64,000 bases of DNA, from NCBI GenBank assembly GCA_014727915.1, contig WJMO01000005.1, positions 192,001 to 256,000 on the forward strand, in the 5' to 3' direction. The notes below the pieces were generated by a model. That model searched no databases. It saw only the letters and a program-made list of their open reading frames with translations, and was not told the DNA's origin. Below are positions 8,865 to 61,657 of the stretch, piece by piece (the first letter of the stretch is position 1; every line of letters begins with the position of its first letter). This DNA is from Candidatus Altiarchaeales archaeon (GTDB lineage Archaea > Altiarchaeota > Altiarchaeia > IMC4 > SCGC-AAA252-I15). A program made the position numbers and the translations under genes.

Positions 8865-9131
8865 ATGCCGAAGATAGTCGTTGAGTCGGGTATGGTTTTG
8901 AACCTTGGAGGTTTCATAGTGGAGAAGAAGGCTAAACTACCTTGCGTAGACGTCATAGTCGGGAACCCCCTACCAGAGGATATGAAGCTGGACGCCCCCG
9001 TCTACAGCGAGGAGATGCTCCGGGAATACGAACGCCAGGGCATGTTCGTAGAATACCTCAGGGACGGGGAGTCACTGAAAGAAAAGCTAGAGGGGATGAA
9101 GAAGAGAGTGGATGAAAAACTGAAGGGCTAG
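8865..9131 (+). CDS. ehbP: Ehb subunit P
   Basis: MPK...NLGGFIVE...VIVGNP...DAPVY pattern typical of EhbP; last gene of the operon. Confidence 0.75.
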   Translation: MPKIVVESGMVLNLGGFIVEKKAKLPCVDVIVGNPLPEDMKLDAPVYSEEMLREYERQGMFVEYLRDGESLKEKLEGMKKRVDEKLKG

Positions 9132-9469
9132 CATTGTCCGTCGGTGAACACCCAATTCACTGCGTAAACGGCAACCACCACTATCGCCACGGACACCGGC
9201 ACCAACACCACCATAACCTTGCTCGCCATCCGCAGCAGCCTATTCGTGTCGCTGTCGCCTTTGACCTTTAAATGTATTATGCCCGCAGCTATCAGGATCG
9301 GGATGTAGACCAGCACTCCCAAGCCGGCAGTGATTGAGAGCAGGAGGAATTTCATGTTCTCCAACACCTGGCAGATGGCCATCTGAGCCTCCGCCTCAGG
9401 TGTCATGTACCCATTTGCTATGCCCGCGCACGCCAAAACAGCCAACACCGTGAACCCCCTCTTTTTCAC
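9128..9469 (-). CDS. Small secreted/membrane protein, TrbC/VirB2 pilin-like architecture
   Basis: Signal peptide, then two hydrophobic helices separated by a charged loop, with a Cys near each end of the mature part. Confidence 0.5.
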   Translation of the reverse strand: MKKRGFTVLAVLACAGIANGYMTPEAEAQMAICQVLENMKFLLLSITAGLGVLVYIPILIAAGIIHLKVKGDSDTNRLLRMASKVMVVLVPVSVAIVVVAVYAVNWVFTDGQC

Positions 9470-47452: not shown

Positions 47453-48352
47453 ATGGCATCCGATCTTATGAGTATGGGTGGCTTAGAGTTCTCCTTGAAC
47501 GCAATAACGGTTCTCGTGTCGTTTGCTGCGGTGGTCTACTGGGTCAAGTTCTTCCGGAGGATAGCATTGTCTGGCAGGCAGGGGATAGGTTGGATATGGA
47601 TATTCGCGTCTGTCCTCATGGTTTTGTTGCTCAACCTCTCTGCGATAGTGATGTTCACGAGCGAGAGCGTGGTCCTGGTGGGTTCTGGAGATACGTTCGT
47701 CGTTGAAGTGACTAAGATGGAGCTGATGAACACTCTGGCCCGGACTATAATAGCCGTTTCAGTCACTTTCGGCGCGTATCTCCTCTATGAGTCAATGGGC
47801 AGCGCCGACGGCATGAAGTACATGTTCAAGCCTGTTCAGTCGCTTGCCGAGGCTAGAAGCAAGGCAGAGCAGAAATTCAGCTTGGAACCCGGTCAGACCT
47901 ACCTTGTCCTGTCAGGCCCTAACGTCACCGATGACGCTGGCGTAGAATGGGATATGTTCGTTGACATGGTCACTCACGGGACCTACGGGTTCGCCATAAC
48001 CCGCACCTATCCCCCTGCCCTAAGGGAGAGATACGGTGTTGTTAAGACGCCCATCCTCTGGCTTACCAAGGACAAGGCATTCAAGGACTGCATACACCCC
48101 ACATCCCTCATCGACTTGAGCCATATGGTGAAGGATTTCATATCCCATGATGGGAAAACGGTAGTGCTCCTCGACGGTCTGGTATACCTTATATCCCACA
48201 ACGACTTCAACGATGTCCTCAAGATAATTCAGGGCTTGAACGATGTTGTGGTGCAGTTTGATTCGCGGATTATAATGCCAATAGACCCTGAGGCGCTGAC
48301 CGAGCGCCAGTTCCACATGCTGAAGACAGAGGCCAAATTGTGGGTGCCCTGA
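47453..48352 (+). CDS. Membrane sensor + DUF835 protein (paralog 1)
   Basis: N-terminal TMs; C-terminal AITRTYP...ILWLT...VLLDGLVYLISHNDF. Confidence 0.82.
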   Translation: MASDLMSMGGLEFSLNAITVLVSFAAVVYWVKFFRRIALSGRQGIGWIWIFASVLMVLLLNLSAIVMFTSESVVLVGSGDTFVVEVTKMELMNTLARTIIAVSVTFGAYLLYESMGSADGMKYMFKPVQSLAEARSKAEQKFSLEPGQTYLVLSGPNVTDDAGVEWDMFVDMVTHGTYGFAITRTYPPALRERYGVVKTPILWLTKDKAFKDCIHPTSLIDLSHMVKDFISHDGKTVVLLDGLVYLISHNDFNDVLKIIQGLNDVVVQFDSRIIMPIDPEALTERQFHMLKTEAKLWVP

Positions 48353-48401
48353 TAAAGGCTGGTTTTCTTTAATATTTGATTGCATGTAATATGATTCAAT
48401 A

Positions 48402-49292
48402 ATGGATGTGCTGCCTGGAGACTTTGTGGATTTGCCCTTCACATTGAATGTTTTCACGATAATAGTATCCCTGGCGGCAGTATACTACTGGGTCAAGCTT
48501 TTCAAGAGGATCTCGATTTCCGACCGCCGGGACGAGGGTTGGATGTGGATATTCGCGTCTGTCCTCATGGTCCTGCTGCTGAACGTTTCCACCATGCTCC
48601 TCGTTTCCACCAGCGGCAGAATACCCGTGGACTCCTATCGCGTGTTCGTCGTTGACGTGAAGACGCTGGAGTTCGTGAACGCTTTCAGCCGGACTGTCAT
48701 GGCTTTGTCGATGACTATCGGAGCCTACATGCTCTATAAGTCCATGAGGTCCCGGGGCGATGTGAAGTTCATGTTCTCCCCCGTCGAGCATGTTATGGAG
48801 GACTCCAGCACCTCGGAGCAGAAGTTCGATCTGAAATCGGGGTGCAGCTACCTGGTCAGCGCTGACCAGGAAGATGGTTCGGTGTCCGGCTGGGACCTCT
48901 TTGTCGACCTGGTTACGCACGGCACAATGGGCTTGGTGGTTTCCCGCCACCATCCCCCGGAACTAAGGGATAGATACGGTTTGGTGAAGACGCCGATGGT
49001 ATGGCTGACTCAGGAGAAGGTCGATGACTCCCTTCACCCATCCGACCTGACGGAGCTGAGCCATATAATCAAGGAGTTCATATGGAAGGGCGGTGAGACC
49101 GCGGTCCTGTTGGACGGGATAGAATACCTCGTATTGCACAACAGCTTCGAGGACGTTCTGAAGACCATCCAGGGCGTTGACGATGTCGTGGTGCAGAACA
49201 AGTCATGCTTGATACTGACAATCGATCCCTCTGCGGTCTCCGAGCAGGAATTCCATCTTCTGAAGAGGGAGCTGAACGAGTACATGGCATAG
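48402..49292 (+). CDS. Membrane sensor + DUF835 protein (paralog 2)
   Basis: Same architecture; VVSRHHP...MVWLT...VLLDGIEYLVLHNSF. Confidence 0.82.
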   Translation: MDVLPGDFVDLPFTLNVFTIIVSLAAVYYWVKLFKRISISDRRDEGWMWIFASVLMVLLLNVSTMLLVSTSGRIPVDSYRVFVVDVKTLEFVNAFSRTVMALSMTIGAYMLYKSMRSRGDVKFMFSPVEHVMEDSSTSEQKFDLKSGCSYLVSADQEDGSVSGWDLFVDLVTHGTMGLVVSRHHPPELRDRYGLVKTPMVWLTQEKVDDSLHPSDLTELSHIIKEFIWKGGETAVLLDGIEYLVLHNSFEDVLKTIQGVDDVVVQNKSCLILTIDPSAVSEQEFHLLKRELNEYMA

Positions 49293-49300
49293 CCTGAGAC

Positions 49301-50302
49301 ATGAAGCCCTTGAACGCTGACTTCCGAACGGGGTCCGGTATTGATTCGCTCGTTGAGAGCATGTCTTTCACAGAACAGGGGGAATTGGACGTCAGCGAGC
49401 TCAGGAACCGTCTTGAGACTGGCGGTTTCAAGTTCGAGGATTTGAGGGTTACCCCGTCTCCTGGCGCTTCCCTCTTGGCTGTCGACTCGTCCTTTTCGAT
49501 GAGGGAGCTGAGTTACCATGCCATCTGGGCAACTCACGCTGTCGCATTATACGGTGAATACGATGGTGGCGAGAACGATGACATCCTGGTCGGGCATGGT
49601 TCCATCCCCTACGGGAACCTGCTTTACTCCAGCTACCTGGAAGCCGGCGAATTCATTCCCTACAGTGAGGTCGACTCCCGGGGTAATGCGGCTCGCGTGT
49701 CTTTCGAGTTCAGCTCTTTAAAGAGGGCTTATGGTGAGTTGGAGTCCTCAGGCCTGAAACCTGACTTCATACTGGTTGACGGGAGCCTGTACACCAACCT
49801 ACGGAACATAAGGGCCAAGGATGGTGTTTTTCCCGAGTGTGAGGCGGCTCTAAGGTCTTTCGGGGAGGTCCTTGGGATGGAGCGTGTGGTGGGCATGGTG
49901 GAGGACAGCCATGCGACGGACCTTTCGCGCGATTTGGGTTACAACTTCACCAACATGCTGCTGTTCGAGATTGCGCTGGAGCCTGGCGAGTATGTGGTGG
50001 ACGAGAGGGAGGGCATAAGCATATGCTATGTGAAGATGCCCTCCAAGCCGCTTCCATTCTCTGCTGCAGGCTCTTCCAAACCCCTTACTGTGAGGTGGGA
50101 GTTCAACTACCCTGGCTTCAGGGACGACCTTGGTTTGTTGGCTGGGATTTGGATGTCCGAGTCGGACATACTCCACCCTCAGATTTACATGTTGCGGACG
50201 GCCGACTATCTGACCAGGAAGATACGTGTTCAGGGCCTTCTGGAGAGGATCGTATCGGAGAAGGGACTGGGTCTAAAGTACAGGGAGCAGCGGGAGATTT
50301 GA
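49301..50302 (+). CDS. nurA: NurA-family nuclease
   Basis: LAVDSS and ILVDGSL acidic motifs; C-terminal Y.L..AD...K. Confidence 0.7.
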   Translation: MKPLNADFRTGSGIDSLVESMSFTEQGELDVSELRNRLETGGFKFEDLRVTPSPGASLLAVDSSFSMRELSYHAIWATHAVALYGEYDGGENDDILVGHGSIPYGNLLYSSYLEAGEFIPYSEVDSRGNAARVSFEFSSLKRAYGELESSGLKPDFILVDGSLYTNLRNIRAKDGVFPECEAALRSFGEVLGMERVVGMVEDSHATDLSRDLGYNFTNMLLFEIALEPGEYVVDEREGISICYVKMPSKPLPFSAAGSSKPLTVRWEFNYPGFRDDLGLLAGIWMSESDILHPQIYMLRTADYLTRKIRVQGLLERIVSEKGLGLKYREQREI

Positions 50303-51849: not shown

Positions 51850-54800
51850 TCATCTTGTTTGCCCTATTTTATCAAGTTCGACTTCGATGTCCTGGTAGCT
51901 TGTGGCGTTGTTGAGTATCCTGTTGGCCTCCTCCTCGGGGAGCTTTTGCCTCAGTTTGATCATCACATTTATCGCCTGGTCCAGCTCCTCTGGCGTCCTG
52001 GTCTTCGCCAGAAGGTCGTTAACGGCGTTCCTCGAGAGTCCGGTCTGGCTTATCCTCTGCATTGCCTCTGCGGTGACGGACATGTCGTCTGTTGTGTTAT
52101 CCTTCCACATTAGCTTGTTTATGACCTGTGTGGACAGGCCTCTGGATCTTAACTCCTCTATGAACTCCTCCTCCCTGCCTGATATCGCAGCCGTTCCGCT
52201 GGAAACCATCTTCTTGAGCTCTGCGTCGCTTTTCTCGCCCCATCTGCCGTTGAATTCATCGTATCTCCTTGATTGTCCCACCGCTGCCGCGATGTCCTTC
52301 TCATTCCACCCGGCATTGTCCATCCTCTCGATCGTGTCCACCGACCTGTCAATATCCTCCCTTATCTCCTCATAACCCTGCTCGTTCTCGCTCACGCCAA
52401 CGTATGTCGGGTCTTCCCGCACCCTGCCCCTGACTTGGCTCCAGGTGTACGCTCCGGCTGCGACTCCCCCCGCCATTGAAAGCATAGAACTCGAGAAGTT
52501 GCTGTACCCTATGGCATGCGGCTCGGTTGAGTAGTAGCCGCTGAGCTTGTTATACTCGTTTGATATGTTATCTGCGTTGTTCGAGGGTGTTACTACTATG
52601 CCAGTCATGGATAGGGGTCCGCTGAACTTCTCTCCACCCTCCAGGTAGGTCATATGGTGAGCGCCCCTGCTGAAGGATGCGAACTCCTCGATGTTCCTCC
52701 CGCTAGTCTCGCCTTCGAATGTGAGCATCCCAGGGTCTATGCCTGGCTTGACAGTGCTCTGGTGCTGTCTCAGGAGTTCAACAGCCCTCTTCTCTGCTTG
52801 GAGCCTGGATGTCAGGCTGGCCTTCAATGCGTCGCTGTCTGTGATCTCCGCGCTGACTGCACATCCACTATCGTCCAATGTGTAATCGCATCCTTCAAGG
52901 GCGTATCCGCTGCGTTGGCTGTTGTATAGGCTGACCAGGTTGGCGGAGGCGGTTTCCGGACTCCCGGCATTTTCCAACGTGCTGTTGACCAGTTCCATCC
53001 TCCCGGTTCTTGCCTGTATGTTCTCGTCCAGGGTCTGGTATTTCAGTGTGGTCATCTGACTCGCGTCGTATCTGCCGTTGCTGCTCTCTACTAGCCACTG
53101 TTTTGAGGATTCTCTCTGCTTCACCTCTCTCACCCTGTCAGCATCCAAGCCAGAGGCCTCTGCTATACTATCGACCTCCGCGTCGGTCACTGCTGCCATG
53201 GCTTCGCTGTCAATTCTCCCGCCTTTGACTAATCGTCCGCCCTCCACCCGGCCCAGCATCCTTATCTCATCCCTTGCGGCCTCTTCATACCTCAGCCCTG
53301 AGAGGCTTTCCTGAACCTTTGGCGCGGCCTCCGACCCGCGTGTGACCCTGATATCCCGGGCTCTCCTCTCTGCTGAGGTGTAGTCCATCGATTTTATGCT
53401 GTCAAGGTCGAACTCCGATGCGTTGGCGACCGGCAGGAAAAGGTGCACCTTCCTCCTCTCGTCGCTGCTGAGCATCCTGTACTCATCCTGGGATATAGAA
53501 CCCCTGAGGTGCTTGGGAACTGCCATGAGGTAGACTTCTTTCATCATGGTCTCGGCATTGGAGGCTGCCGGGCTACCAGGGTTGTCGTCAACGACTTCCT
53601 GAAGGACGTCCATTGCTCTCAAATTCTCTCCCCTGGAAGTTAGCGTGTCCACAGCGTCAAGGGCGTCTTCAGGGCTTCCTTCCTTTATGCTGGTCTCGGC
53701 CCGTCTGACCACCGAGGCGGTCGGTTCCACCGGCTTCTCCGGACGTGTTTCCTCCGCTGCTCTAGACTCCTCTTCTGCCCTGGTGCCTGCAGGTGTCTTC
53801 GCTGCTGCCGGGGGAGCTGAGGGTTTTGGAGTTGCATACCTCCTCAGGAAAGCGTCCGGGCTTCCCCCGTCCTTCACAGCTCCTGTTAGAGGGCCGTCGG
53901 CGGTGCTCCAGTTGTCGTCCTGGGATGACATGAGACTGTCTAAGGCGTCAACCGCGTTATCCGGTTTGGCTCCTTTCTCTCCGGCGACGAACCTGTCGAA
54001 CTCCTGGGCGTTCTGCCGCCCTATGAAGGCGACTCCCACGCCTTCGACTCCCTTCACGTTGCCCGATGTCCGGAGGTTCTCCAGTTTCCTGTTGTTGCCG
54101 ACGTATCTGATCATCTGTTCGGTCTTCTCGTCGGTGCTCATCGGCCTGTCGCCTCGAGCCTGCTGTCTTGTGTCCTTTTCCTCGACTGCGGCCGACATGG
54201 AGGGGACTCCGAGGTTGGGGTCCGTCCAGACAGGCTCCGTTATGCCGCCAGTAGCCTCTATTATCCTGTTAGCCTGGCTGGGGTTCAACCCGTTCATCCT
54301 CTGTAGGAACCGTCTGGCGAATAATCTGGCATCCCTCTCCACCTGCATCGAATAGGCTTTTGCCTTCCTCTCCTCTTCCAGAGCCGCTCTCTCACCCTCC
54401 CTATCAGCCTTCTTGTTGGCCTCTATCCTCTTCTGCTCCCACTTCTTCCATTCACTGTCGCTCGCCTCCTTTTCCCTGCTGTAGCCTTGCATGCCCTCTG
54501 TGAACCTCTGAACTGCCTTCTTCCTGTGCTCTGGGGTTACTGGTGTCCTCCGTTCCTGTTTGGGACGTCCTGCCTCCGCAGCTCCCAACCTGCTGCCTGC
54601 AGGTTTTGGCGGCGGCTCCATTATCCTGCCTCCTCCAGTTGTAGAATGTGATGCGCGTATCCCCGAGGGTGATCCGCCCACTCCGCCTAATCCGCCGGCT
54701 GGCGATCCTCCCGGTCCCCCAGCACGCTCAGCCTTGGCTCCGAAGCCTCCACGCCTCCCCGGATGTCGCATGTCCACATGCCCTGGCATGGCATCCGCTT

Positions 54801-56556
54801 GCATCTCGCCCGGCCTGGCCCTTCCATGTTTCCGCGTTACAGAACCTGGCTCGATGGTCTGAGTGGTTCCCGGCCGATTCATTTGGGTCGTGCCTGAAAC
54901 ATACCTTGATGTCGAGGTGTCCCTTATGGTGCTCCTACGGGGTGCTGTCCGGCGGTCTTCGCTGGCGTCCCAGCTCTTGCCCCCTTCCTCGCGGACCTGC
55001 TCCTCCTGCAGCGGTGGCTCTCCACCCTCAGAGTGTGTTGAGCTTGATTCTCTGACTGCAGAGCCTGTGTCTGCAGCCCATTGTATGTGGGATCCTCTTC
55101 TGATGTGGCGTCCTGGCATCCGGGAGGGCATGTGGACTGCTCCGCTGCCCAGAACCCCCGTCGCTCCCATCATCCCCGGCCTATGGAAAAGGCTGCTTCC
55201 ATGTCCTGAGATGCCGGGCATAGAAGTCAACCCCACCTCCCCGGGGGAGGGAAGATATCGTGCTCCGCCTACTGCGCCTTTGCTGCTGAAGTACGGTTCC
55301 GGGGCGCTCCCTATAGTGTCCGCGTCCGGGTTTGGAATGGTATACCTGAAGCTTGTTGAGGGTCCGCTGGCTTCTCCGCCTGCGTGGTCTCCCATGCTGT
55401 GTCCCATCATATACTGTCCGCTGGCGGTCTCCAGGGCGGTGTTCAGCCTGCCGGTCCTCATGTATGTTGCGACGAACCTTGACATGGAGTCTCCGCCCCT
55501 CGTGGAGTATATGTGGAGAACGGCACCCACCCATGACATCATCTGCAATCCGATCAATGGGCTGAAGACTACTCCAAGGTATGATGCTGTTAGGAGAACG
55601 AAGTCAGTTATGGGGTCTCCTGTTCCGCTGTCGATCATCATCAGCAACCCGATGACTATGAACAGGACTTGGATCAACTGTATGACCAGGAGCATTACCG
55701 TGAACCTGAGGAACCTCGTTCCAAGCCCTCGGAGAGAGAAGAAGGGGTTGGGTATGTCTGTGAAGTACATGAAGAGTATCAACGGGAAGAATGCCGCCAT
55801 CACATAGGTCAGGAAGTACCTGAACGCTGCCATCATAGCCGCTATCATTATTATGACTATGAAGATGTACATGGAGCAGCAGTATTGGCTTCCTCTCATG
55901 GTGGTTATCTTCCCGTAAAGTATGTTGAAGCTGTTTTCGGTCTGGTCTATCAGGGGAGTCACGACCAGCCTCTCAAGGTCGAACATCATCTGGAGGAGGA
56001 CGGGCGCCTGTGACACTAGTATCATGCCCACCAGCAGGCGGGTGAATGTGTCCTTTGCGTTGGCCCTCCCCTGGGGCGATCCTGCCATGAATATGAGGTA
56101 TGCTGCCACTATGATTATGCCAAAGATGTATACTATCTGTAGCGCCTCCATGACCCTCATGTTTATGACCCTTATGTTCGGGTCCACAGGCATCTGTATG
56201 GATATCTCCACGGCCTTGCCTTCCTCGTTGGTGTATACGACATATGGGTCGCAGAGTCCGCTGCTCGAGTATACGCATGGGTTTATCTGGGACATTATGA
56301 CCGTGGGTCGCATCATCGTCACCACCCCATACGCCCCCCATTCAACCAGGTATGTTATCATGGATTCGACGACGTTCTCCCAGAAGTTGTCCCACATGTC
56401 GACGAAGAAGTCCTTCGTCGCCTCCAGGTTCTCCTCGAAGTAATGCCAGTAGACGTCCCAGTTCACTCCCGCAGATACGTTTTGCACGGATAGCAGGGCC
56501 AACGCTATGACTGCGAGCGCGAGCACCAGCTTCCTGCGGTTATGCAATGTTTTCAC
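51850..56556 (-). CDS. Giant membrane protein with N-terminal VirB6/TrbL-like domain and ~1200-aa soluble tail
   Basis: Signal peptide, 6-7 TMs with GSPQGRANAKD loop and RYFLTYVMAAFFP helix, then a Gly/Pro/Arg-rich disordered region, coiled coil, TPR-like pair and helical repeats; GTGA overlap with the upstream gene. Confidence 0.75.
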   Translation of the reverse strand: MKTLHNRRKLVLALAVIALALLSVQNVSAGVNWDVYWHYFEENLEATKDFFVDMWDNFWENVVESMITYLVEWGAYGVVTMMRPTVIMSQINPCVYSSSGLCDPYVVYTNEEGKAVEISIQMPVDPNIRVINMRVMEALQIVYIFGIIIVAAYLIFMAGSPQGRANAKDTFTRLLVGMILVSQAPVLLQMMFDLERLVVTPLIDQTENSFNILYGKITTMRGSQYCCSMYIFIVIIMIAAMMAAFRYFLTYVMAAFFPLILFMYFTDIPNPFFSLRGLGTRFLRFTVMLLVIQLIQVLFIVIGLLMMIDSGTGDPITDFVLLTASYLGVVFSPLIGLQMMSWVGAVLHIYSTRGGDSMSRFVATYMRTGRLNTALETASGQYMMGHSMGDHAGGEASGPSTSFRYTIPNPDADTIGSAPEPYFSSKGAVGGARYLPSPGEVGLTSMPGISGHGSSLFHRPGMMGATGVLGSGAVHMPSRMPGRHIRRGSHIQWAADTGSAVRESSSTHSEGGEPPLQEEQVREEGGKSWDASEDRRTAPRRSTIRDTSTSRYVSGTTQMNRPGTTQTIEPGSVTRKHGRARPGEMQADAMPGHVDMRHPGRRGGFGAKAERAGGPGGSPAGGLGGVGGSPSGIRASHSTTGGGRIMEPPPKPAGSRLGAAEAGRPKQERRTPVTPEHRKKAVQRFTEGMQGYSREKEASDSEWKKWEQKRIEANKKADREGERAALEEERKAKAYSMQVERDARLFARRFLQRMNGLNPSQANRIIEATGGITEPVWTDPNLGVPSMSAAVEEKDTRQQARGDRPMSTDEKTEQMIRYVGNNRKLENLRTSGNVKGVEGVGVAFIGRQNAQEFDRFVAGEKGAKPDNAVDALDSLMSSQDDNWSTADGPLTGAVKDGGSPDAFLRRYATPKPSAPPAAAKTPAGTRAEEESRAAEETRPEKPVEPTASVVRRAETSIKEGSPEDALDAVDTLTSRGENLRAMDVLQEVVDDNPGSPAASNAETMMKEVYLMAVPKHLRGSISQDEYRMLSSDERRKVHLFLPVANASEFDLDSIKSMDYTSAERRARDIRVTRGSEAAPKVQESLSGLRYEEAARDEIRMLGRVEGGRLVKGGRIDSEAMAAVTDAEVDSIAEASGLDADRVREVKQRESSKQWLVESSNGRYDASQMTTLKYQTLDENIQARTGRMELVNSTLENAGSPETASANLVSLYNSQRSGYALEGCDYTLDDSGCAVSAEITDSDALKASLTSRLQAEKRAVELLRQHQSTVKPGIDPGMLTFEGETSGRNIEEFASFSRGAHHMTYLEGGEKFSGPLSMTGIVVTPSNNADNISNEYNKLSGYYSTEPHAIGYSNFSSSMLSMAGGVAAGAYTWSQVRGRVREDPTYVGVSENEQGYEEIREDIDRSVDTIERMDNAGWNEKDIAAAVGQSRRYDEFNGRWGEKSDAELKKMVSSGTAAISGREEEFIEELRSRGLSTQVINKLMWKDNTTDDMSVTAEAMQRISQTGLSRNAVNDLLAKTRTPEELDQAINVMIKLRQKLPEEEANRILNNATSYQDIEVELDKIGQTR

Positions 56557-59500
56557 GGCCAATTACCTTGGTTCTGCCTTCTTCTCATCTCCATGAAGAA
56601 GTCCAGCATGTTGTCCGATTGGGTGCGGTTCTGGTCTCTGCTGTCCATGTTCCCCAAACTGAATGACTGGCGCATGTTCCTCCTCCAGGGAGCAGCCCTC
56701 CTTGCGTCATATCCTATTATCCTATTATGTAGGGATTGTGCCAGCTGGTCGTACTCGGTCTGCTGGGCGTCCGTCCTCTGTGCTAGGCCCTTTAGTGTGT
56801 CCAACCTGTCCAGGTCGGTGCCATAGGCGTCTAGGACACCTGTCACCTGACGGTCTGATATGCCCGTGGCGGCAGGGTCCATCAGCCCGTTGTCGAATCT
56901 GTCGTTCCAGTCCGTGTCGCTCATCATATGAGGGCTTGGGGCCGCTGCTCCTGTCTGCTCGCTGTGCCATTCCCGTATGGCTGCCGCGGCACCGCCTGTG
57001 ACTTCCCGCCTTTCCGCGCCCCAGCTGTTACCGTGCCTGAATACACGGTCGCCTTCGATTGTGTACATTTCACCAGTATCCCCGTACACTCTGTTGCCTC
57101 TTATCTGGTATTCCATCCCTCCAGTAGCTGATGTTCTGCCCAGCTGCGCCAGCGTCCTGCTATGTTCCGCTTCGAACTCTCTCATCTCAGGGTTTCCTCC
57201 CTTGTTGGGGCTCACCGTTCCCCTTGCGCTGACCAGGTCGTCCCTCGCCTGCTGTTGCTCGAACCTCTCCCGGTGGCTGTCGTATGCGGTGTTCTGTGCC
57301 ATCGCCAAGGCCTGGGCTTCGAAGTTGGGGTCGCTTGGGTTCATGCCACTTGCCCTCAGCTGGGACTTAGCAGCCTTCAAGTGCTTTTTCCTGCCCCTAC
57401 CCCAGAGTCCCTGCCATACCGCTTGCCTTTCGACCATCTCATTTGCCATGTTGTCCCTGACTGCCTCGGTGTTGAGGCCGTGCTCGTCCATCGCCCGGCT
57501 CTTCGCTGTGGCGTCCGCCTGATTCTGCTGGGCCCTTGTCAAGACGGCCGTCCTATCTCCGTAGGCCTGCTGCTTCGCCCTTTCCATGTCCCCTCCGTTC
57601 TGGTCCAGGTAGTCCACCTTCTGGGATGCTGTCAGCTGGTCCCATACGGCGTCCCTGCTGTATCCTTCCTGGTGCGCAGAGTCCAGGCTGTTCCATACGT
57701 TGTCCTGGTCTCCCTTGTCGTTCAAAGCCAGCTGCCCTGCAGTCTTCCCCGCCTGGACGAGTTGTTCCGGAGTCAGCATGTCGGTGGACTCCCGGAAAGC
57801 TAGCCTCTTGGCGGAGTCCGTGTTCCCCCCTGTTATGTTGAGGTAGTCCGTCTGTTGCTGTGACGTTAGCGAGCTCCACACTCCCTCGGTCATGTAGTTC
57901 TGCCTTTCCTCCTGGGTCAGGGCTCCGCTGTTCCAGAGCGCGTCCGCCCTCACCTGCCGGCTGCGGTCCGCGCCGGAGGTGCTGACTCCATCCTCTCCAA
58001 AACGCTGCAGGCCGTCCTGGTAGGCGTTCGCCAATGCGATCCCCCTGACACCTTCTTCGTCGGCGTTCGGGTTAGCAGTTCTCGCCTGCTCTATGTAATT
58101 TTCCTGTGTATTCGTGTCAAGACTGTTCCAGTATTGGTTGGCTCTACGGTATTCTCTCCTACCCTGGGTGTATGCCTGGTCCCTCGCTTGGAGGGCGTCA
58201 CTCTGGTCCTGCCTAGATACCCTGAGGTTCCTCTGGGCGGTCTGGTTAGCCGTCTGCGCGGCTGTCAGATTAGCCGTCAGCTGGGCTCCGTTGTAGTTCC
58301 TGTTGAACCACTGGTCCACGTGCTGGTCGAACAAGGCCCTCTGCGTGGGGTCTAATGTCGAGGGGTCGACGCCCCTCCATGTCCTTGAGTTCCTGACATC
58401 CCGTTCCGCGTTCTGCCGGGCCTGGTCGTATGCGCTCTGGGCGTTGGCTTCGCTGGTCTGCGCGGTGTTGGCGGAGTTCTGGGCGGTGTTCAGGCTGTTA
58501 CTGGCGTTCGTGACCCTCGTGTCGTGCTGCTGCCTGTTGTTCACGAACTGGTCCCTTACGGTCTCATTGCCCCAACCCATCGAATCCGCCTGGCTCTGGC
58601 CAGCGGCATTTACTGTGTGCAAGCCAGCCTGCAATTCCCTCGCATAATGGTTGAAGGCATTCTCCTTAGCTGCGGTCTCTTCGGGCGACCCTGCTGCCAT
58701 GCCCGGATCCCACCCGAACCGTTTCTTCTGGTCGTCGGACATCTTACCCCAGAGTTCGTCCCGCAGGGGCTCGTGCATTGTGTTGGCCTGCCTGTCAAGC
58801 CGATTGGCCGGCCCTCTCCTTCCCTGGCTCCTTGCCTGCGCCGCCTGCTGCCGTGTCTGCCGCCTCTGATCCCCCATCTCCGCCAGCCTCTCAGTGAAGC
58901 TTGGGCTTCCGTCGTCGGGTCGCTGGCTCAGTTGCCGCATGAACTCCTCGTCCTCTCTCATGGTCTTGCCCGCCGGCTGAAGTATCTTGGCGCCTATAGC
59001 GGTCGTCAATGCGGCGACTCCAACGAAACCTGTTATTGACATTCCCAGCCCAGGAGCTGCCAGTATTGCGACGGGCAATGCGATGCCCACGGCGGTCATA
59101 GCGGCTGAGACCATCGGAGGGGCTCCCTTGGAACCTCCTTCCTCGTAGCTCTTGTAAAGGTTGTCCGCTCCCCTGGCCAAATTCCTCCTCACGCCACGGA
59201 AGCTGTGGACTCCATAGTTGAATTTTTGCTCTCCGGTCCTCGAGTCCTGCGTCCACCACCCGGTCATATAGTAAGACGCTCCTAAGAGCGTTCTACCAAC
59301 ACCCCAGTCGCCGATGCTATGCCTTAGAAAACCCCTCAAGGCGTATCCTACAGGAACCAGCAGAAGCTTCGGGGATAGGTTTGCGGCCAGTCCCATGCCC
59401 AGCCAGTAGGCCTTGCTCCAACCGCTCCTTGACGTGGCATACCTGACTCCATAGTATTGCTGTGCTGTCATCTCGTCTGGCCGGGTGCCTGCGGTTACCG

Positions 59501-60893
59501 CGGTTCCGAATGCCGCCCTGGTGGCCCGCTCGCCCCAGCTGACATCCCCCCATCCTCCGACCTCTCTTTCTCTGCCCCCGAGCGCCGAACCATATACCAT
59601 CGGGGGCTCTCCGTCCGGGCCCTGACCGATCGGCTGATGCCCGCCCCACGGGCTGTGGGGTTGTGAGGTGGCCGCGGAAGACGGAGGTCCTCCACCCCTG
59701 TCCGGGTAGCTGTGCCCTGCGGCCGACTCCCTTGGTCCCTCCAATCTGGCGTCTGACCTCTGCTGGATGTAAGCTGCCTGCGTGAACGCCTGACCCCCGT
59801 AGCCTTGCATCACATAGCCTACGAAAGCCAGCCTCGCGCTGCCCGTCGTCTGCGCCACGAATATGGTGCCCGACCCTACGGTGCTGAGCATCCCTGTGAT
59901 CATCATCGGCGACAATCCGATAAGCATGTATGCTATCAGCGCGGCTATGGCAGGGCCAGGGTTCAAATAGTCGAATGGCGACTGCAGTATCATCCAGGAC
60001 AGCACTATGAACACGGACATCGGTATGGGCATCATCGCCCATGTTATCGTCCACTTGGCCAGCTTGTATCCTATGCCCTTGAGGAAGTCGAATGCGAGGC
60101 AGAATATCGTGAACGGGAACAGCGCTCCGAACACCAGCACCATGTTGTACCTGACCGCGAGTACGAGGTATGGCAGGAAGATCATCGCGAGTATCATGCA
60201 TATTATCCCGAGTATCAGCGGCCATCCTATGCCGAAGGTGAAGAACGCTATCAATGCGATGGCTCCCGTTGCCATCCCTGCCCCGGCCGCGGCAGGCCCC
60301 ATCCCTACTATGGGGTCCCACGACACAGGCACACCTCCTATAGTCAGTATCTGGTGCACTATGAAGTTGTTCAGCTCCAGTAGCATGTCGTACATGGGGA
60401 ACGCGAGCCCGGAGAAGACCAACCCCATTATGAGCTTTTGGAGCATGGACTTCGCCTGGGTCCTGACTCTGGGAGCGGTCGCACCCCATATGAAGTATAC
60501 GGCAACCAGGAGTATCAGGACCATGTACAGGGGGACGAGTATCTGCATTATGATCCTCCCCACCGTCTGGATGACTGGATGGGTTGTGTCAGCGCATTTC
60601 ATGCCTCCCGGGTTGTTGCACCCTGCGAACATATAGCTCATGAAGGTGTTCTTGTACTCCTTGAGGGAGTCCGACATGAGCGACTGCAGGTTGTCCCCTC
60701 CCTTCTTTAAGATGCCTGTTGAATCCCCTTTTGCGCCTGCCTTCGTCGGGCTGTCAGAGCCCTCACGGTCGTGGAATGACGTCTTGGGGCTTCCGACGGT
60801 ATCTCCAGGGGCTGCGAAAGCGGTCGATAAGAACAATAGTACGGCGGTGGCGGAGATCAGTAATAGTAGGCCTCTTCGGTTGACCTGGGTCAT
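56553..60893 (-). CDS. Giant membrane protein with N-terminal VirB6/TrbL-like domain and Gln/Asn/Ala-rich repeat tail
   Basis: Signal peptide, TMs with TAPRVRTQAKS loop and RYNMVLVFGALFP...W helix, further hydrophobic segments, coiled coil, W-x2-L-x3-QQ-x2-Y repeats. Confidence 0.75.
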   Translation of the reverse strand: MTQVNRRGLLLLISATAVLLFLSTAFAAPGDTVGSPKTSFHDREGSDSPTKAGAKGDSTGILKKGGDNLQSLMSDSLKEYKNTFMSYMFAGCNNPGGMKCADTTHPVIQTVGRIIMQILVPLYMVLILLVAVYFIWGATAPRVRTQAKSMLQKLIMGLVFSGLAFPMYDMLLELNNFIVHQILTIGGVPVSWDPIVGMGPAAAGAGMATGAIALIAFFTFGIGWPLILGIICMILAMIFLPYLVLAVRYNMVLVFGALFPFTIFCLAFDFLKGIGYKLAKWTITWAMMPIPMSVFIVLSWMILQSPFDYLNPGPAIAALIAYMLIGLSPMMITGMLSTVGSGTIFVAQTTGSARLAFVGYVMQGYGGQAFTQAAYIQQRSDARLEGPRESAAGHSYPDRGGGPPSSAATSQPHSPWGGHQPIGQGPDGEPPMVYGSALGGREREVGGWGDVSWGERATRAAFGTAVTAGTRPDEMTAQQYYGVRYATSRSGWSKAYWLGMGLAANLSPKLLLVPVGYALRGFLRHSIGDWGVGRTLLGASYYMTGWWTQDSRTGEQKFNYGVHSFRGVRRNLARGADNLYKSYEEGGSKGAPPMVSAAMTAVGIALPVAILAAPGLGMSITGFVGVAALTTAIGAKILQPAGKTMREDEEFMRQLSQRPDDGSPSFTERLAEMGDQRRQTRQQAAQARSQGRRGPANRLDRQANTMHEPLRDELWGKMSDDQKKRFGWDPGMAAGSPEETAAKENAFNHYARELQAGLHTVNAAGQSQADSMGWGNETVRDQFVNNRQQHDTRVTNASNSLNTAQNSANTAQTSEANAQSAYDQARQNAERDVRNSRTWRGVDPSTLDPTQRALFDQHVDQWFNRNYNGAQLTANLTAAQTANQTAQRNLRVSRQDQSDALQARDQAYTQGRREYRRANQYWNSLDTNTQENYIEQARTANPNADEEGVRGIALANAYQDGLQRFGEDGVSTSGADRSRQVRADALWNSGALTQEERQNYMTEGVWSSLTSQQQTDYLNITGGNTDSAKRLAFRESTDMLTPEQLVQAGKTAGQLALNDKGDQDNVWNSLDSAHQEGYSRDAVWDQLTASQKVDYLDQNGGDMERAKQQAYGDRTAVLTRAQQNQADATAKSRAMDEHGLNTEAVRDNMANEMVERQAVWQGLWGRGRKKHLKAAKSQLRASGMNPSDPNFEAQALAMAQNTAYDSHRERFEQQQARDDLVSARGTVSPNKGGNPEMREFEAEHSRTLAQLGRTSATGGMEYQIRGNRVYGDTGEMYTIEGDRVFRHGNSWGAERREVTGGAAAAIREWHSEQTGAAAPSPHMMSDTDWNDRFDNGLMDPAATGISDRQVTGVLDAYGTDLDRLDTLKGLAQRTDAQQTEYDQLAQSLHNRIIGYDARRAAPWRRNMRQSFSLGNMDSRDQNRTQSDNMLDFFMEMRRRQNQGNWP

Positions 60894-60946
60894 AGTAAAT
60901 AACATTAAATCTTGAGATATTTATTTAGTATAATATACTGTTTCCC

Positions 60947-61657
60947 TCAGTTTCCCGATAATATCTCAGGCATCCTCCCCCATGCGCCCACCGTATCGTC
61001 TTTCACTATCAGGACGCCCCTTATGCCCCCGATACTCCTTGCTTTTTCTATGGCCTTCTCCACGTCACCCGCCTCACATACTACATTGGCTATCGCCGTT
61101 GCCGCAGCGTCCGCTATAGCGCCCTTGTCTGCGAACACTGTGACGGAGTCGGCTTCTCCCAGGCTGATGCTGTGCCCCACGGAACCCGAGCTGGTGCATA
61201 TGTTGCAGGGTGTCTCGCCCGCAGTAACCCTTAATGCTATCCTGCCTGTTGTGCTCGATGGCCCCGAGTCCAAACCCACTATCATCTCGTCTTTTGTCTT
61301 CAGGTATATGTCTCCCCCGTTCTCCACTATGACTTCCTGCGCGCCTTTTGACACTATGTATTCGCCTATCAGATGGGAGAATGTCCCTGCCACGGCTGCC
61401 ATCGGCCCCACATCGCACTCTCCTGACGCTTCTATCAGGCTCCTGACTATCTCCGGGGCTGAAGGGTCTTCTTCAACGGGCTCATATGTTGACTTGAACA
61501 GCGGGTTCCTGTTTATGTAATCGACAAGCAGGTTGTAGTGTCTGATCAGTTCGTCCAGTGCGTCAACCTGAGCGTCAACGTCCGATTTGACCTTGATGTG
61601 GGTCTCACCGTAGTCGAGGCCGAAGGAGTTGAGAGGACGGTCGGTCAATCCCATCAC
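60947..61657 (-). CDS. UPF0280 (ApbE-like, COG2122) protein
   Basis: VGPMAAVAG, VENGGDI, ICTSSGSVGHSISLGEAD, ADAAATAIAN. Confidence 0.92.
   Translation of the reverse strand: MMGLTDRPLNSFGLDYGETHIKVKSDVDAQVDALDELIRHYNLLVDYINRNPLFKSTYEPVEEDPSAPEIVRSLIEASGECDVGPMAAVAGTFSHLIGEYIVSKGAQEVIVENGGDIYLKTKDEMIVGLDSGPSSTTGRIALRVTAGETPCNICTSSGSVGHSISLGEADSVTVFADKGAIADAAATAIANVVCEAGDVEKAIEKARSIGGIRGVLIVKDDTVGAWGRMPEILSGN

Follow-up and report, generated by a model that had tools for sequence, protein, structure and literature searches.

Two coupled giant genes of an Altiarchaeota chromosome as probable extended VirB6-type subunits of an inherited, conjugation-derived machine

What are two adjacent genes of 4.3 and 4.7 kb, coupled to one another and surrounded by housekeeping genes, doing on the chromosome of an archaeon? 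The stretch of DNA that raises this question (hereafter the window) comprises 64,000 nucleotides of an uncultured Candidatus Altiarchaeales archaeon, positions 192,001 to 256,000 of contig WJMO01000005.1 in assembly GCA_014727915.1 (G000:C12:192001-256000 in our numbering, G000 being the host genome, with 1.81 Mb in 13 contigs and a completeness of 90.6%). Altiarchaeota are abundant subsurface, biofilm-forming archaea, and to our knowledge the experimental proof of domesticated conjugation machines in archaea is confined to Crenarchaeota, with Ced and its relative Ted. We propose, as a reading that we think reasonably probable, that the products of the two genes, here called A and B, are extended VirB6-type platform or channel subunits of an inherited, relaxase-less machine derived from a type IV secretion system (T4SS), with long tails that would serve as cytoplasmic scaffolds or adaptors and that in B include a pseudo-protease module. 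Carrying this proposal are the homology and fold of the N-terminal domain (N-domain), the existence and conservation of partner genes elsewhere in the genome, and the fixed chromosomal place of the pair.

ORF calling and translation showed that the interval 51850-60905 of the window is filled, on the minus strand, by two long open reading frames (ORFs):

56553..60905, minus strand: gene A, 1450 amino acids (aa), extended VirB6-like, the upstream member of the pair; an ORF with orthologues at the same chromosomal place in 7/7 related loci
51850..56562, minus strand: gene B, 1570 aa, extended VirB6-like, the downstream member of the pair; an ORF with orthologues behind the A orthologues in relatives
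56553..56556, minus strand: GTGA overlap, in which the stop codon of A overlaps a GTG in B's frame, with a TTG start at 56562; read at the junction

Gene A ends TGG CCG TGA, which in B's frame reads TTG GCC GTG AAA; B has an alternative start in the TTG two codons upstream of the GTG, and A has one in a second in-frame ATG at 60893, the end point given in an initial annotation of this DNA. The two-gene unit with a GTGA overlap described in that annotation was thereby borne out. In each of the seven related loci that we examined, which come from four genera (g1, g2, g4 and g8), a B orthologue stands behind an A orthologue, and the two overlap or lie at most 27 nt apart. Because the orthologues stand in the same order and are tightly coupled in all seven loci, A and B are not chance ORFs. 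They are probably paralogues that are co-translated from one operon.

A and B have only the N-terminal ~300-aa membrane domain in common. BLASTP yielded one significant alignment between them (A 110-444 with B 128-433, 22% identity, E 1e-16), and every other alignment had E >= 0.19, which agrees with the earlier claim of a common membrane domain followed by unrelated tails. The domain and its parts lie as follows:

59706..60905, minus strand: A residues 1-400, with a signal peptide, an extracytoplasmic helix containing C96-x7-C104, and a VirB6-like polytopic domain; from the AlphaFold2 model and fold search
60342..60581, minus strand: A residues 109-188, a VirB2/pilin-like helical hairpin with the basic loop APRVRTQAK; from PF18895, jackhmmer and the alignment with 8dfu_B
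55363..56562, minus strand: B residues 1-400, with a signal peptide, C96-x7-C104, and a VirB6-like polytopic domain whose pilin-like hairpin is at ~128-194; from BLASTP to A, PF18895 and profile

Judged by eye, both N-termini have the appearance of Sec-type signal peptides (…AFA/AP in A and …VSA/G in B). In both proteins the cysteines 96 and 104 form a C-x7-C pair, and over residues ~110-340 there are seven hydrophobic peaks in A and six in B, with which the AlphaFold2 helices agree. A Pfam scan placed PF18895, the family of VirB2-like T4SS pilins, at residues 111-168 of A (15.2 bits) and at residues 146-191 of B (20.9 bits, E 4e-4), in both cases below the cut-off of 26.6, and the profile built from the family alignment (A1) matched B with 243 bits. 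Seeded with A 1-400 and run against the host genome, jackhmmer converged on 16 ORFs, five of them large (A, B, a 1443-aa protein on contig C12, and proteins of 1665 and 682 aa on contig C3) and 11 small and pilin-like (98-224 aa). As this search joins the large proteins with the small pilin-like ORFs, the large ones start with a pilin-like hairpin, which further helices follow. An exhaustive HMMER search of the protein library, with A 1-400 as the query, gave 222 cluster representatives at E <= 0.001, 81 of them at E <= 1e-10, with lengths of 149-2261 aa among the 150 listed; where homologues carried source names (two proteins), the name was 'Candidatus Altiarchaeota archaeon'. When 42 shorter homologues were scanned with Pfam, nine matched PF18895 and four matched TrbL/VirB6, two of the latter at or above the gathering score of 25.9 (25.9 and 27.6 bits).

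The predicted structure points in the same direction. An AlphaFold2 model of A 1-400, made from a 69-sequence alignment, had a mean predicted local distance difference test score (pLDDT) of 79.3 and a predicted template modelling score (pTM) of 0.69. Among 48,161 PDB chains compared with VIA-align, the first rank went to TrwI/VirB6 of plasmid R388 (7o3v_F; Z 9.5, 230/261 residues aligned, root-mean-square deviation (rmsd) 6.0) and the second to DotA of the Dot/Icm system (9ngy; Z 8.8, 235 residues aligned), while the third aligned 91 residues and all later rows at most 145. The Aeropyrum CedA1 pilus chain 8dfu_B aligned 80 of its 84 residues on A 109-188 (rmsd 2.7, Z 5.8). In Foldseek, TrwI chains took ranks 1-4 and 6 with a probability of 0.84-0.99 and E 0.08-0.65. 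The most conserved residues of the domain in the 69-sequence alignment are those of the pilin-like hairpin loop and of the RY…FP helix, that is, of the VirB6-like core. We consider it highly likely that the N-domain is VirB6-like; the PF18895 hairpin, the TrbL matches in 4/42 homologues and the fold matches to TrwI and DotA support the initial annotation in this. A complex prediction for A 60-395 with B 60-400 returned a score of 0.01 and a mark of 0.32, values that have no bearing on binding.

If A and B belong to a T4SS-like apparatus, the genome should also contain a VirB4-type ATPase and pilins; the initial annotation named their absence as a refutation, and both are present. A VirB4/pilin locus lies on contig C3 at 63.2-77.4 kb, on a single strand and adjoining SepRS. 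It holds three pilins (PF18895/TrbC), a 768-aa VirB4, a 305-aa fusion of PrgI/VirB3 with the N-terminal part of VirB4, a 398-aa protein without assignment, the 682-aa paralogue of the A/B domain, a 155-aa protein, the 1665-aa paralogue and a further pilin. The 768-aa VirB4 matched the TraG P-loop domain with 92 bits, and its best family was the CD1110-type VirB4 of NCBIfam (294 bits, cut-off 325), as against 53 bits for CedB (cut-off 700) and 52 bits for CedD (cut-off 600). PrgI was recognised in the 305-aa protein with 36.8 bits (cut-off 27). A genome search gave ten PF18895 matches over the cut-off, one of them inside gene B, and further pilin genes lie on C6, in a tandem array, and on C12. 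Besides A and B there are three VirB6-like paralogues, the two on C3 and a third giant of 1443 aa on C12, which lies behind a protein of 2241 aa that scores 51.9 bits for Peptidase_M23 (cut-off 28.7). M23-type wall hydrolases are of a kind found in Gram-positive T4SSs, and a VirB4 of CD1110/Mycoplasma type, a PrgI/VirB3-like protein, a wall hydrolase and PF18895 pilins would together mark a monoderm (FATA-type) or Patescibacteria-like T4SS; here the VirB4 score lies just under the family cut-off, and the scores for the other three lie above theirs. Neither a relaxase nor a coupling protein was found: the genome had no match to Relaxase, Rep_trans or Mob_Pre, and the T4SS-DNA_transf, TrwB_AAD_bind and FtsK models matched only P-loops of 42-50 residues in three HerA helicases. 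We rejected these helicases as coupling proteins, given that they have the architecture HAS-barrel plus DUF87 plus HerA_C and that their similarity to coupling proteins is confined to those P-loops.

Some of these loci have features of their own. The second giant pair (G000:C12:50829-61936; L027:4829-15936, minus strand) consists of the 2241-aa M23 protein and, after a gap of 50 nt, the 1443-aa VirB6-like paralogue; the M23 domain is N-terminal, and a peptidoglycan-type hydrolase is an odd component for an archaeal T4SS-like system. Elsewhere on C3 (G000:C3:190576-201935; L067) there is a second, shorter VirB4-like ATPase of 593 aa (TraG P-loop, 77.9 bits), which shares 38% identity with the main VirB4 across residues 258-766. 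It is codirectional with a 1701-aa giant and with three unassigned proteins (690, 569 and 151 aa); jackhmmer placed no member of this group in the VirB6-like family. This region may represent a second, different machine. On C6 (G000:C6:83780-88377; L025:5780-10377) five or six tandem PF18895 pilin genes are convergent with a gene whose 968-aa product resembles the oligosaccharyltransferase STT3/AglB (E 7.5e-28, with a score under that family's cut-off), and the C6 pilins may be glycosylated.

The initial annotation had paired A and B with a pilin-like gene within the window, and this part of it did not stand. The ORF in question (window 9128-9469, minus strand; 113 aa) has no PF18895/TrbC match, only a 35-residue BLAST similarity to one C3 pilin (E 2e-4), and the clear partners are on C3, on C6 and, in the case of one pilin, far off on C12. 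The ORF encodes a signal peptide and two transmembrane (TM) helices, a layout like that of pilins, and lies between Ehb hydrogenase genes and a methyltransferase gene.

The machine looks inherited rather than mobile. A profile of the N-domain family found members in 47/49 genomes of the order, at 1-16 copies each, and in 0/12 genomes of two sister families. In the set of 41 related genomes, 39 have the N-domain family and 38 have VirB4, with 59-82% identity for full-length matches, and VirB4 was found in 0/5 sampled sister-family genomes. The surveyed genomes are kin, and this co-distribution is suggestive rather than statistical. In six of the seven A-B loci, again in four genera, the pair abuts the AMP phosphorylase/NurA-like genes, and the seventh ends at a contig edge. 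The earlier idea of a chromosomal, domesticated apparatus gains support from the retention of VirB4 (38/41), from the spread of the family (47/49) and from this fixed place. Across the family the domain is carried with tails of 0 to ~1900 aa; family f5 has short paralogues of 300-400 aa in tandem arrays of 4-6, some at most ~5 kb from VirB4 (e.g. G040:C9). In some relatives, VirB4 matches and short VirB6-like matches contain a single in-frame TAA, TAG or TGA, which could stem from pseudogenes, from errors of assembly or from the boundaries of genes.

On which side of the membrane the tails begin can be judged from charge. Over the 69 sequences (A numbering), the mean number of K+R is 4.26 in the hairpin loop 141-157 and 2.81 in the loop 273-284, as expected for the cytoplasm, and 0.32 in the loop 190-203 and 0.46 in the loop 308-316, as expected for the outside; the N-region of the domain is acidic. 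Together, the K+R pattern and the acidic N-region would place the N-terminus outside and direct the last core helix (317-337) inward, so that the tails would start in the cytoplasm. We conclude that the tails probably begin on the cytoplasmic side, a view for which we also count the lack of signal peptides and TM segments in standalone homologues of a module in B's tail.

The tails themselves comprise these regions:

58956..59555, minus strand: A residues 451-650, a second conserved region with hydrophobic segments at 596-640; conservation 0.33-0.37 over 6 orthologues, against 0.10-0.16 beyond
56556..58955, minus strand: A residues 651-1450, a Q/N/R/D/A-rich divergent tail; from composition
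54463..55362, minus strand: B residues 401-700, a G/P/S/R-rich linker, probably disordered; G+P+S 29-41 per 100 residues, net charge up to +10
52174..53388, minus strand: B residues 1059-1463, a ~400-aa module; from BLASTP, profile and AlphaFold2
52546..52560, minus strand: degenerate HExxH, N1335-E-Y-N-K1339, with Ser1359 at the downstream Glu position; from alignment A4, in which B is the exception

In A the hydrophobic peaks are at 598-616 and 620-638, and beyond them the motif VW(N/S/D)(S/Q)L occurs in five copies between residues 990 and 1167. The tail of A is collinear with those of orthologues from genera g1 and g4 to residue ~950-1400, at 28-31% identity, while B has no BLAST similarity to its orthologues beyond residue ~510. 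The pair evolves faster than its neighbours. Against G001, the closest relative compared for the tails and a member of the same genus, identity is 82% for VirB4, 79% for AMP phosphorylase, 60% for Trm1, 54% for the NurA-like protein and 52% for the HAD hydrolase; for A it is 31% over 1044 aa, and for B it is 45% over 460 aa, after which there is none. The tails are lineage-specific orphans. Pfam, NCBIfam and PHROGs, run on the full-length proteins, identified no domain in either tail; neither tail had a phmmer match at E <= 1 among PDB sequences; and BLASTP self-comparison detected no internal repeats in either tail at E <= 0.01. A word-indexed homologue search with B 1050-1570 scored none of 8000 candidates, the same type of search with the module alignment returned one protein, already known, and the ESM Atlas had no usable match to B 1050-1570.

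The module near the end of B does have relatives within the order. BLASTP matched it to four standalone proteins of 619-854 aa (E 2e-24 to 8e-14), which have neither a signal peptide nor a TM segment. Its core occurs also in the B orthologues of G002, G003, G004 and G006 and in three other proteins, the module is found within a 3297-aa protein, and its profile is present in 9/49 genomes of the order. Ten of 11 sequences keep an HExxH motif and, 20 residues beyond its second His, a Glu (H277, H281 and E301 in alignment A4). This is the spacing seen in thermolysin. In that alignment the exception is the window's own B, in which the putative metal ligands H, H and E are all lost and which lacks the HExxH+Glu signature of a gluzincin-like enzyme. 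The motif marks the module in the relatives as a putative protease. An AlphaFold2 model of the 405-residue module reached a pLDDT of 82.9, and Foldseek and VIA-align found no protease among the listed rows, only helical-bundle matches to model residues 103-217. The tail of the 1665-aa paralogue on C3 also bears an HExxH, and the module profile had no match to it. In one relative (L061:3338-8664; G016:C11), two standalone HExxH-module proteins of 663 and 652 aa are encoded 1.4 kb apart on the same strand and are followed by a 442-aa protein; their N-terminal halves have no Pfam match.

How might these parts work together? The machine would be a relaxase-less type IV secretion apparatus of Altiarchaeota, derived from conjugation, passed down vertically throughout the order and with its parts dispersed in the genome: VirB2-like pilins (ten or more genes), the PrgI/VirB3-VirB4-N fusion, the 768-aa VirB4, A and B, the three further VirB6-like paralogues and the M23-peptidase giant. 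By analogy with TrwI/VirB6, DotA and CedA/TedA, the N-domains would be inserted by the Sec pathway and would then oligomerise in the cytoplasmic membrane, over the VirB4 motor, and the oligomer could act both as a platform for the extraction and polymerisation of pilins and as a conduit for substrate. A and B might co-assemble or form alternative channels. Their tails of more than 1000 aa, cytoplasmic at the start, are probably lineage-specific scaffolds or substrate adaptors in a system without a VirD4-type coupling protein, and the B module, a putative HExxH...E metalloprotease in relatives that has lost all three motif residues here, would bind and not cleave. Candidate cargoes are DNA (as in Ced) and protein (as proposed for Patescibacteria), or the product may be a pilus only. 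A bolder extension of this scheme is speculative and, as a whole, rather unlikely: a conjugation-type machine kept as a permanent organelle, in which interchangeable VirB6 channels (up to 16 per genome) with giant cytoplasmic adaptor or processing tails, some zincin-like, have replaced the coupling protein, and in which A-B would be a dedicated heteromeric channel for a specific cargo, exchanging protein or DNA between biofilm cells.

Several known systems resemble the proposed machine in part. TrwI of R388 (7o3v, 8rtd) and DotA (9ngy), the best structural matches of the A model, have the same kind of polytopic helical membrane domain, and in the VirB6/TrbL family the N-terminal hairpin is likewise related to the cognate VirB2-type pilin, with some members of the A/B family reaching the Pfam TrbL threshold. 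Unlike TrwI and DotA, A and B have no direct Pfam or PDB sequence match, come from an archaeal host and are chromosomal and away from VirB4, and TrwI has no counterpart of their tails. According to Beltran et al. (2023, PMC9905601), the N-termini of VirB6 and CedA are homologous to their pilins (VirB2 and CedA1), and Ced of Sulfolobales and Ted of Thermoproteales are domesticated archaeal conjugation machinery. As that account has it, they too are chromosomal and inherited, a minimal set of pilin, VirB6-like and VirB4-like proteins without a relaxase, in which the VirB6-like N-terminus is homologous to the pilin. In contrast to them, the system described here is from a different phylum, its VirB4 scores higher with the bacterial CD1110 family than with CedB, and it has PrgI/VirB3, an M23 peptidase, many pilin and VirB6 paralogues and giant tails; the Ced models of NCBIfam had no match to A or B. 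The Altiarchaeota system would work like Ced/Ted and, with a CedB similarity far under the threshold, is not a member of that group.

A second parallel is the T4SS of the patescibacterium Southlakia epibionticum, which is described as similar to Gram-positive conjugative systems, with multiple pilin genes but neither a coupling protein nor a relaxase that could be recognised, and as essential by transposon insertion sequencing (Wang et al. 2023, PMC10633639). In that description it shares with the Altiarchaeota system a chromosomal location, several pilins of PF18895 type and the lack of a detected coupling protein and relaxase; it differs in being bacterial and epibiotic, and the main text of that paper makes no mention of VirB6. 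The giant tails invite comparison with Rickettsiales, whose VirB6 paralogues are extended and multiplied, VirB6-4 of Anaplasma phagocytophilum being an example (PMC7648143). There, too, a genome has several tandem or paired virB6-like genes with a conserved core and very long, poorly conserved, lineage-specific C-terminal extensions. The Rickettsiales proteins differ in that their systems are bacterial, mostly host-associated, and effector-translocating or conjugative with VirD4, whereas the Altiarchaeon has five paralogues, is probably free-living and yielded no coupling protein; between their tails and those of A and B no sequence similarity was detected. TraG of the F plasmid and TcpH of Clostridium are further extended VirB6-type proteins for comparison.

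In the literature that pairs Altiarchaeota names with T4SS terms we found no paper describing such a system, and neither PMC8275790 nor PMC4858521 connects the two topics. That the system is undescribed, as the initial annotation suggested, holds only for the body of papers searched; close functional parallels (Ced/Ted and the T4SS of Patescibacteria) are in print. A-B would be part of an apparently undescribed T4SS-derived apparatus of Altiarchaeota. New here are the A-B locus fixed across four genera, the order-level distribution and the motif loss in B.

Our proposal that A and B are subunits of this machine rests on genome sequence comparison and predicted structures, and several observations weigh against it. 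The fold scores are moderate: Foldseek gave no match at E <= 0.001 for the A model, and the Z of 9.5 is below ~13, the safety level that VIA-align itself sets for helical matches. Pfam TrbL matched neither A nor B (E <= 1), nor anything else in the genome, and the A1 family profile, run against PDB sequences, found no VirB6, only a designed protein (E 9e-5) and low-complexity matches. A and B are not beside VirB4 or the pilins, the nearest clear pilin gene lying far outside the window on C12, and their link to the machine is one of paralogy and co-distribution among genomes that are related and non-independent. That co-distribution has exceptions, as G015 and G030 have the N-domain family and no VirB4 match and G035 the reverse, all three genomes being incomplete (82-92%). 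With the host genome itself 90.6% complete, the coupling protein and relaxase are to be called not found, not absent. In the topology, the side of residues 204-272 is ambiguous, and the extra hydrophobic segments of A (505-530, 596-640) could place its distal tail outside.

Among the alternatives, we regard it as unlikely that the VirB6/pilin-like domain is merely an inherited membrane anchor and that A and B do their work apart from the VirB4 machine; in an archaeon that forms biofilms they might, for instance, be scaffolds of the envelope or of a cytoskeleton-like kind. The distance of A and B from the VirB4 and pilin genes would fit such anchors, and so would the lack of any recognisable secretion-related domain in the tails, and the 1-16 copies per genome with tails of 0 to ~1900 aa suggest a reusable module. 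Against this, other paralogues lie inside the VirB4/pilin locus or, in f5, within ~5 kb of VirB4, the family and VirB4 are distributed alike across the order and neither was found in the sister families, and it is the VirB6-like core, the hairpin loop and RY…FP helix, that is most conserved. We also find it quite improbable that the channel domain serves to export or display the variable tail to which it is fused, as an extracellular toxin, tether or kin-recognition part swapped between strains, which is what the initial annotation had in mind when it called the tails polymorphic. VirB6-type proteins such as F-plasmid TraG and DotA are able to expose or release large parts, which counts for this possibility, as do three properties of the tails: they have diverged past BLAST recognition while neighbours keep 52-79% identity; the B module, also found standalone and in the 3297-aa protein, suggests modular shuffling; and most module homologues have HExxH...E. 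The positive-inside pattern nonetheless puts the start of the tails in the cytoplasm, and the module of B, motif-dead in this genome, is a relative of standalone proteins that have no signal peptide. The A tail, weakly conserved as it is, stays collinear with those of its orthologues to ~950-1400, as a tail would that had diverged and not been swapped. Nor is a small immunity-like ORF found downstream in B's orientation, where the convergent AMP phosphorylase gene ends 4 nt from the stop of B; in this B differs from polymorphic toxin systems of the type of contact-dependent inhibition (CDI) or Rhs.

That the pair is cargo of a former integrative and conjugative element (ICE) or plasmid, now decaying and without current function, seems to us highly improbable. 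Among VirB4 families, those from ICEs of Gram-positive bacteria and Mycoplasma come closest to the VirB4 here, and the relaxase and coupling protein were not found, as expected after decay. Yet both ORFs are intact over their full length, their order and chromosomal place are kept in four genera, and VirB4 is retained at 59-82% identity in 38/41 genomes; moreover, the window has no integrase and no repeat-bounded island, and the GC content of the pair (0.57-0.61) is close to that of the window (0.46-0.58), if slightly above it. We continue to favour extended VirB6-type subunits of the inherited machine. If this is right, an order-wide inherited system in Altiarchaeota would extend the range of domesticated conjugation machines and offer a concrete candidate, open to test, for the means by which these cells exchange material or form appendages, and the combination of a VirB6 core with long cytoplasmic tails bears on how substrates are recruited to a T4SS when VirD4 is missing.

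The genes around the pair are housekeeping genes. On the downstream side its neighbours encode Trm1, a HAD hydrolase, two DUF835 proteins, the NurA-like protein and AMP phosphorylase, and on the upstream side NIL-ferredoxin and HcyBio; other window genes specify Ehb hydrogenase subunits, Orc1/Cdc6, KaiC, GlmS and the trp operon. Among the 54 window ORFs scanned (16 with Pfam and 38 with NCBIfam, smaller ORFs being partly scanned) there was no integrase, relaxase or VirB4, which upholds the initial description of a pair set among housekeeping genes. A tRNA scan of the window gave 0 genes and, with no tRNA, there is no tRNA-linked island. A look-up of sequencing runs for the 9-kb locus listed none, with RNA or otherwise, which does not bear on the reading of the pair. 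One further element precedes the pair:

60906..60946, minus strand: candidate archaeal promoter with TATA box and B recognition element (TATA/BRE), the A/T-rich stretch tatattatactaaataaata immediately upstream of the start of A; from reading the letters alone

Next to it, directly upstream of A on the same strand and before NIL-ferredoxin/HcyBio, is a 236-aa ORF (window 60947-61657, minus strand) without a Pfam match, and G002 and G012 have an ORF of 224-225 aa at the same position. In genus g8 (G008 and G019; L059:6822-7295, minus strand, and L060:562-1035, plus strand), a gene directly upstream of the A orthologue, and overlapping it, specifies 157 aa with a signal sequence of class III, like those of type IV pilins (…QAAIEFIL…); this gene has no counterpart upstream of A in the window. 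On the other side of the pair, window positions 47453-50302 (plus strand) hold tandem DUF835 paralogues (299 and 296 aa) and then a protein with a weak NurA domain (E 8.7e-7), whose gene has no HerA gene next to it; the genome encodes its three HerA helicases elsewhere. In relatives, too, this DUF835/NurA block lies in synteny with the pair.

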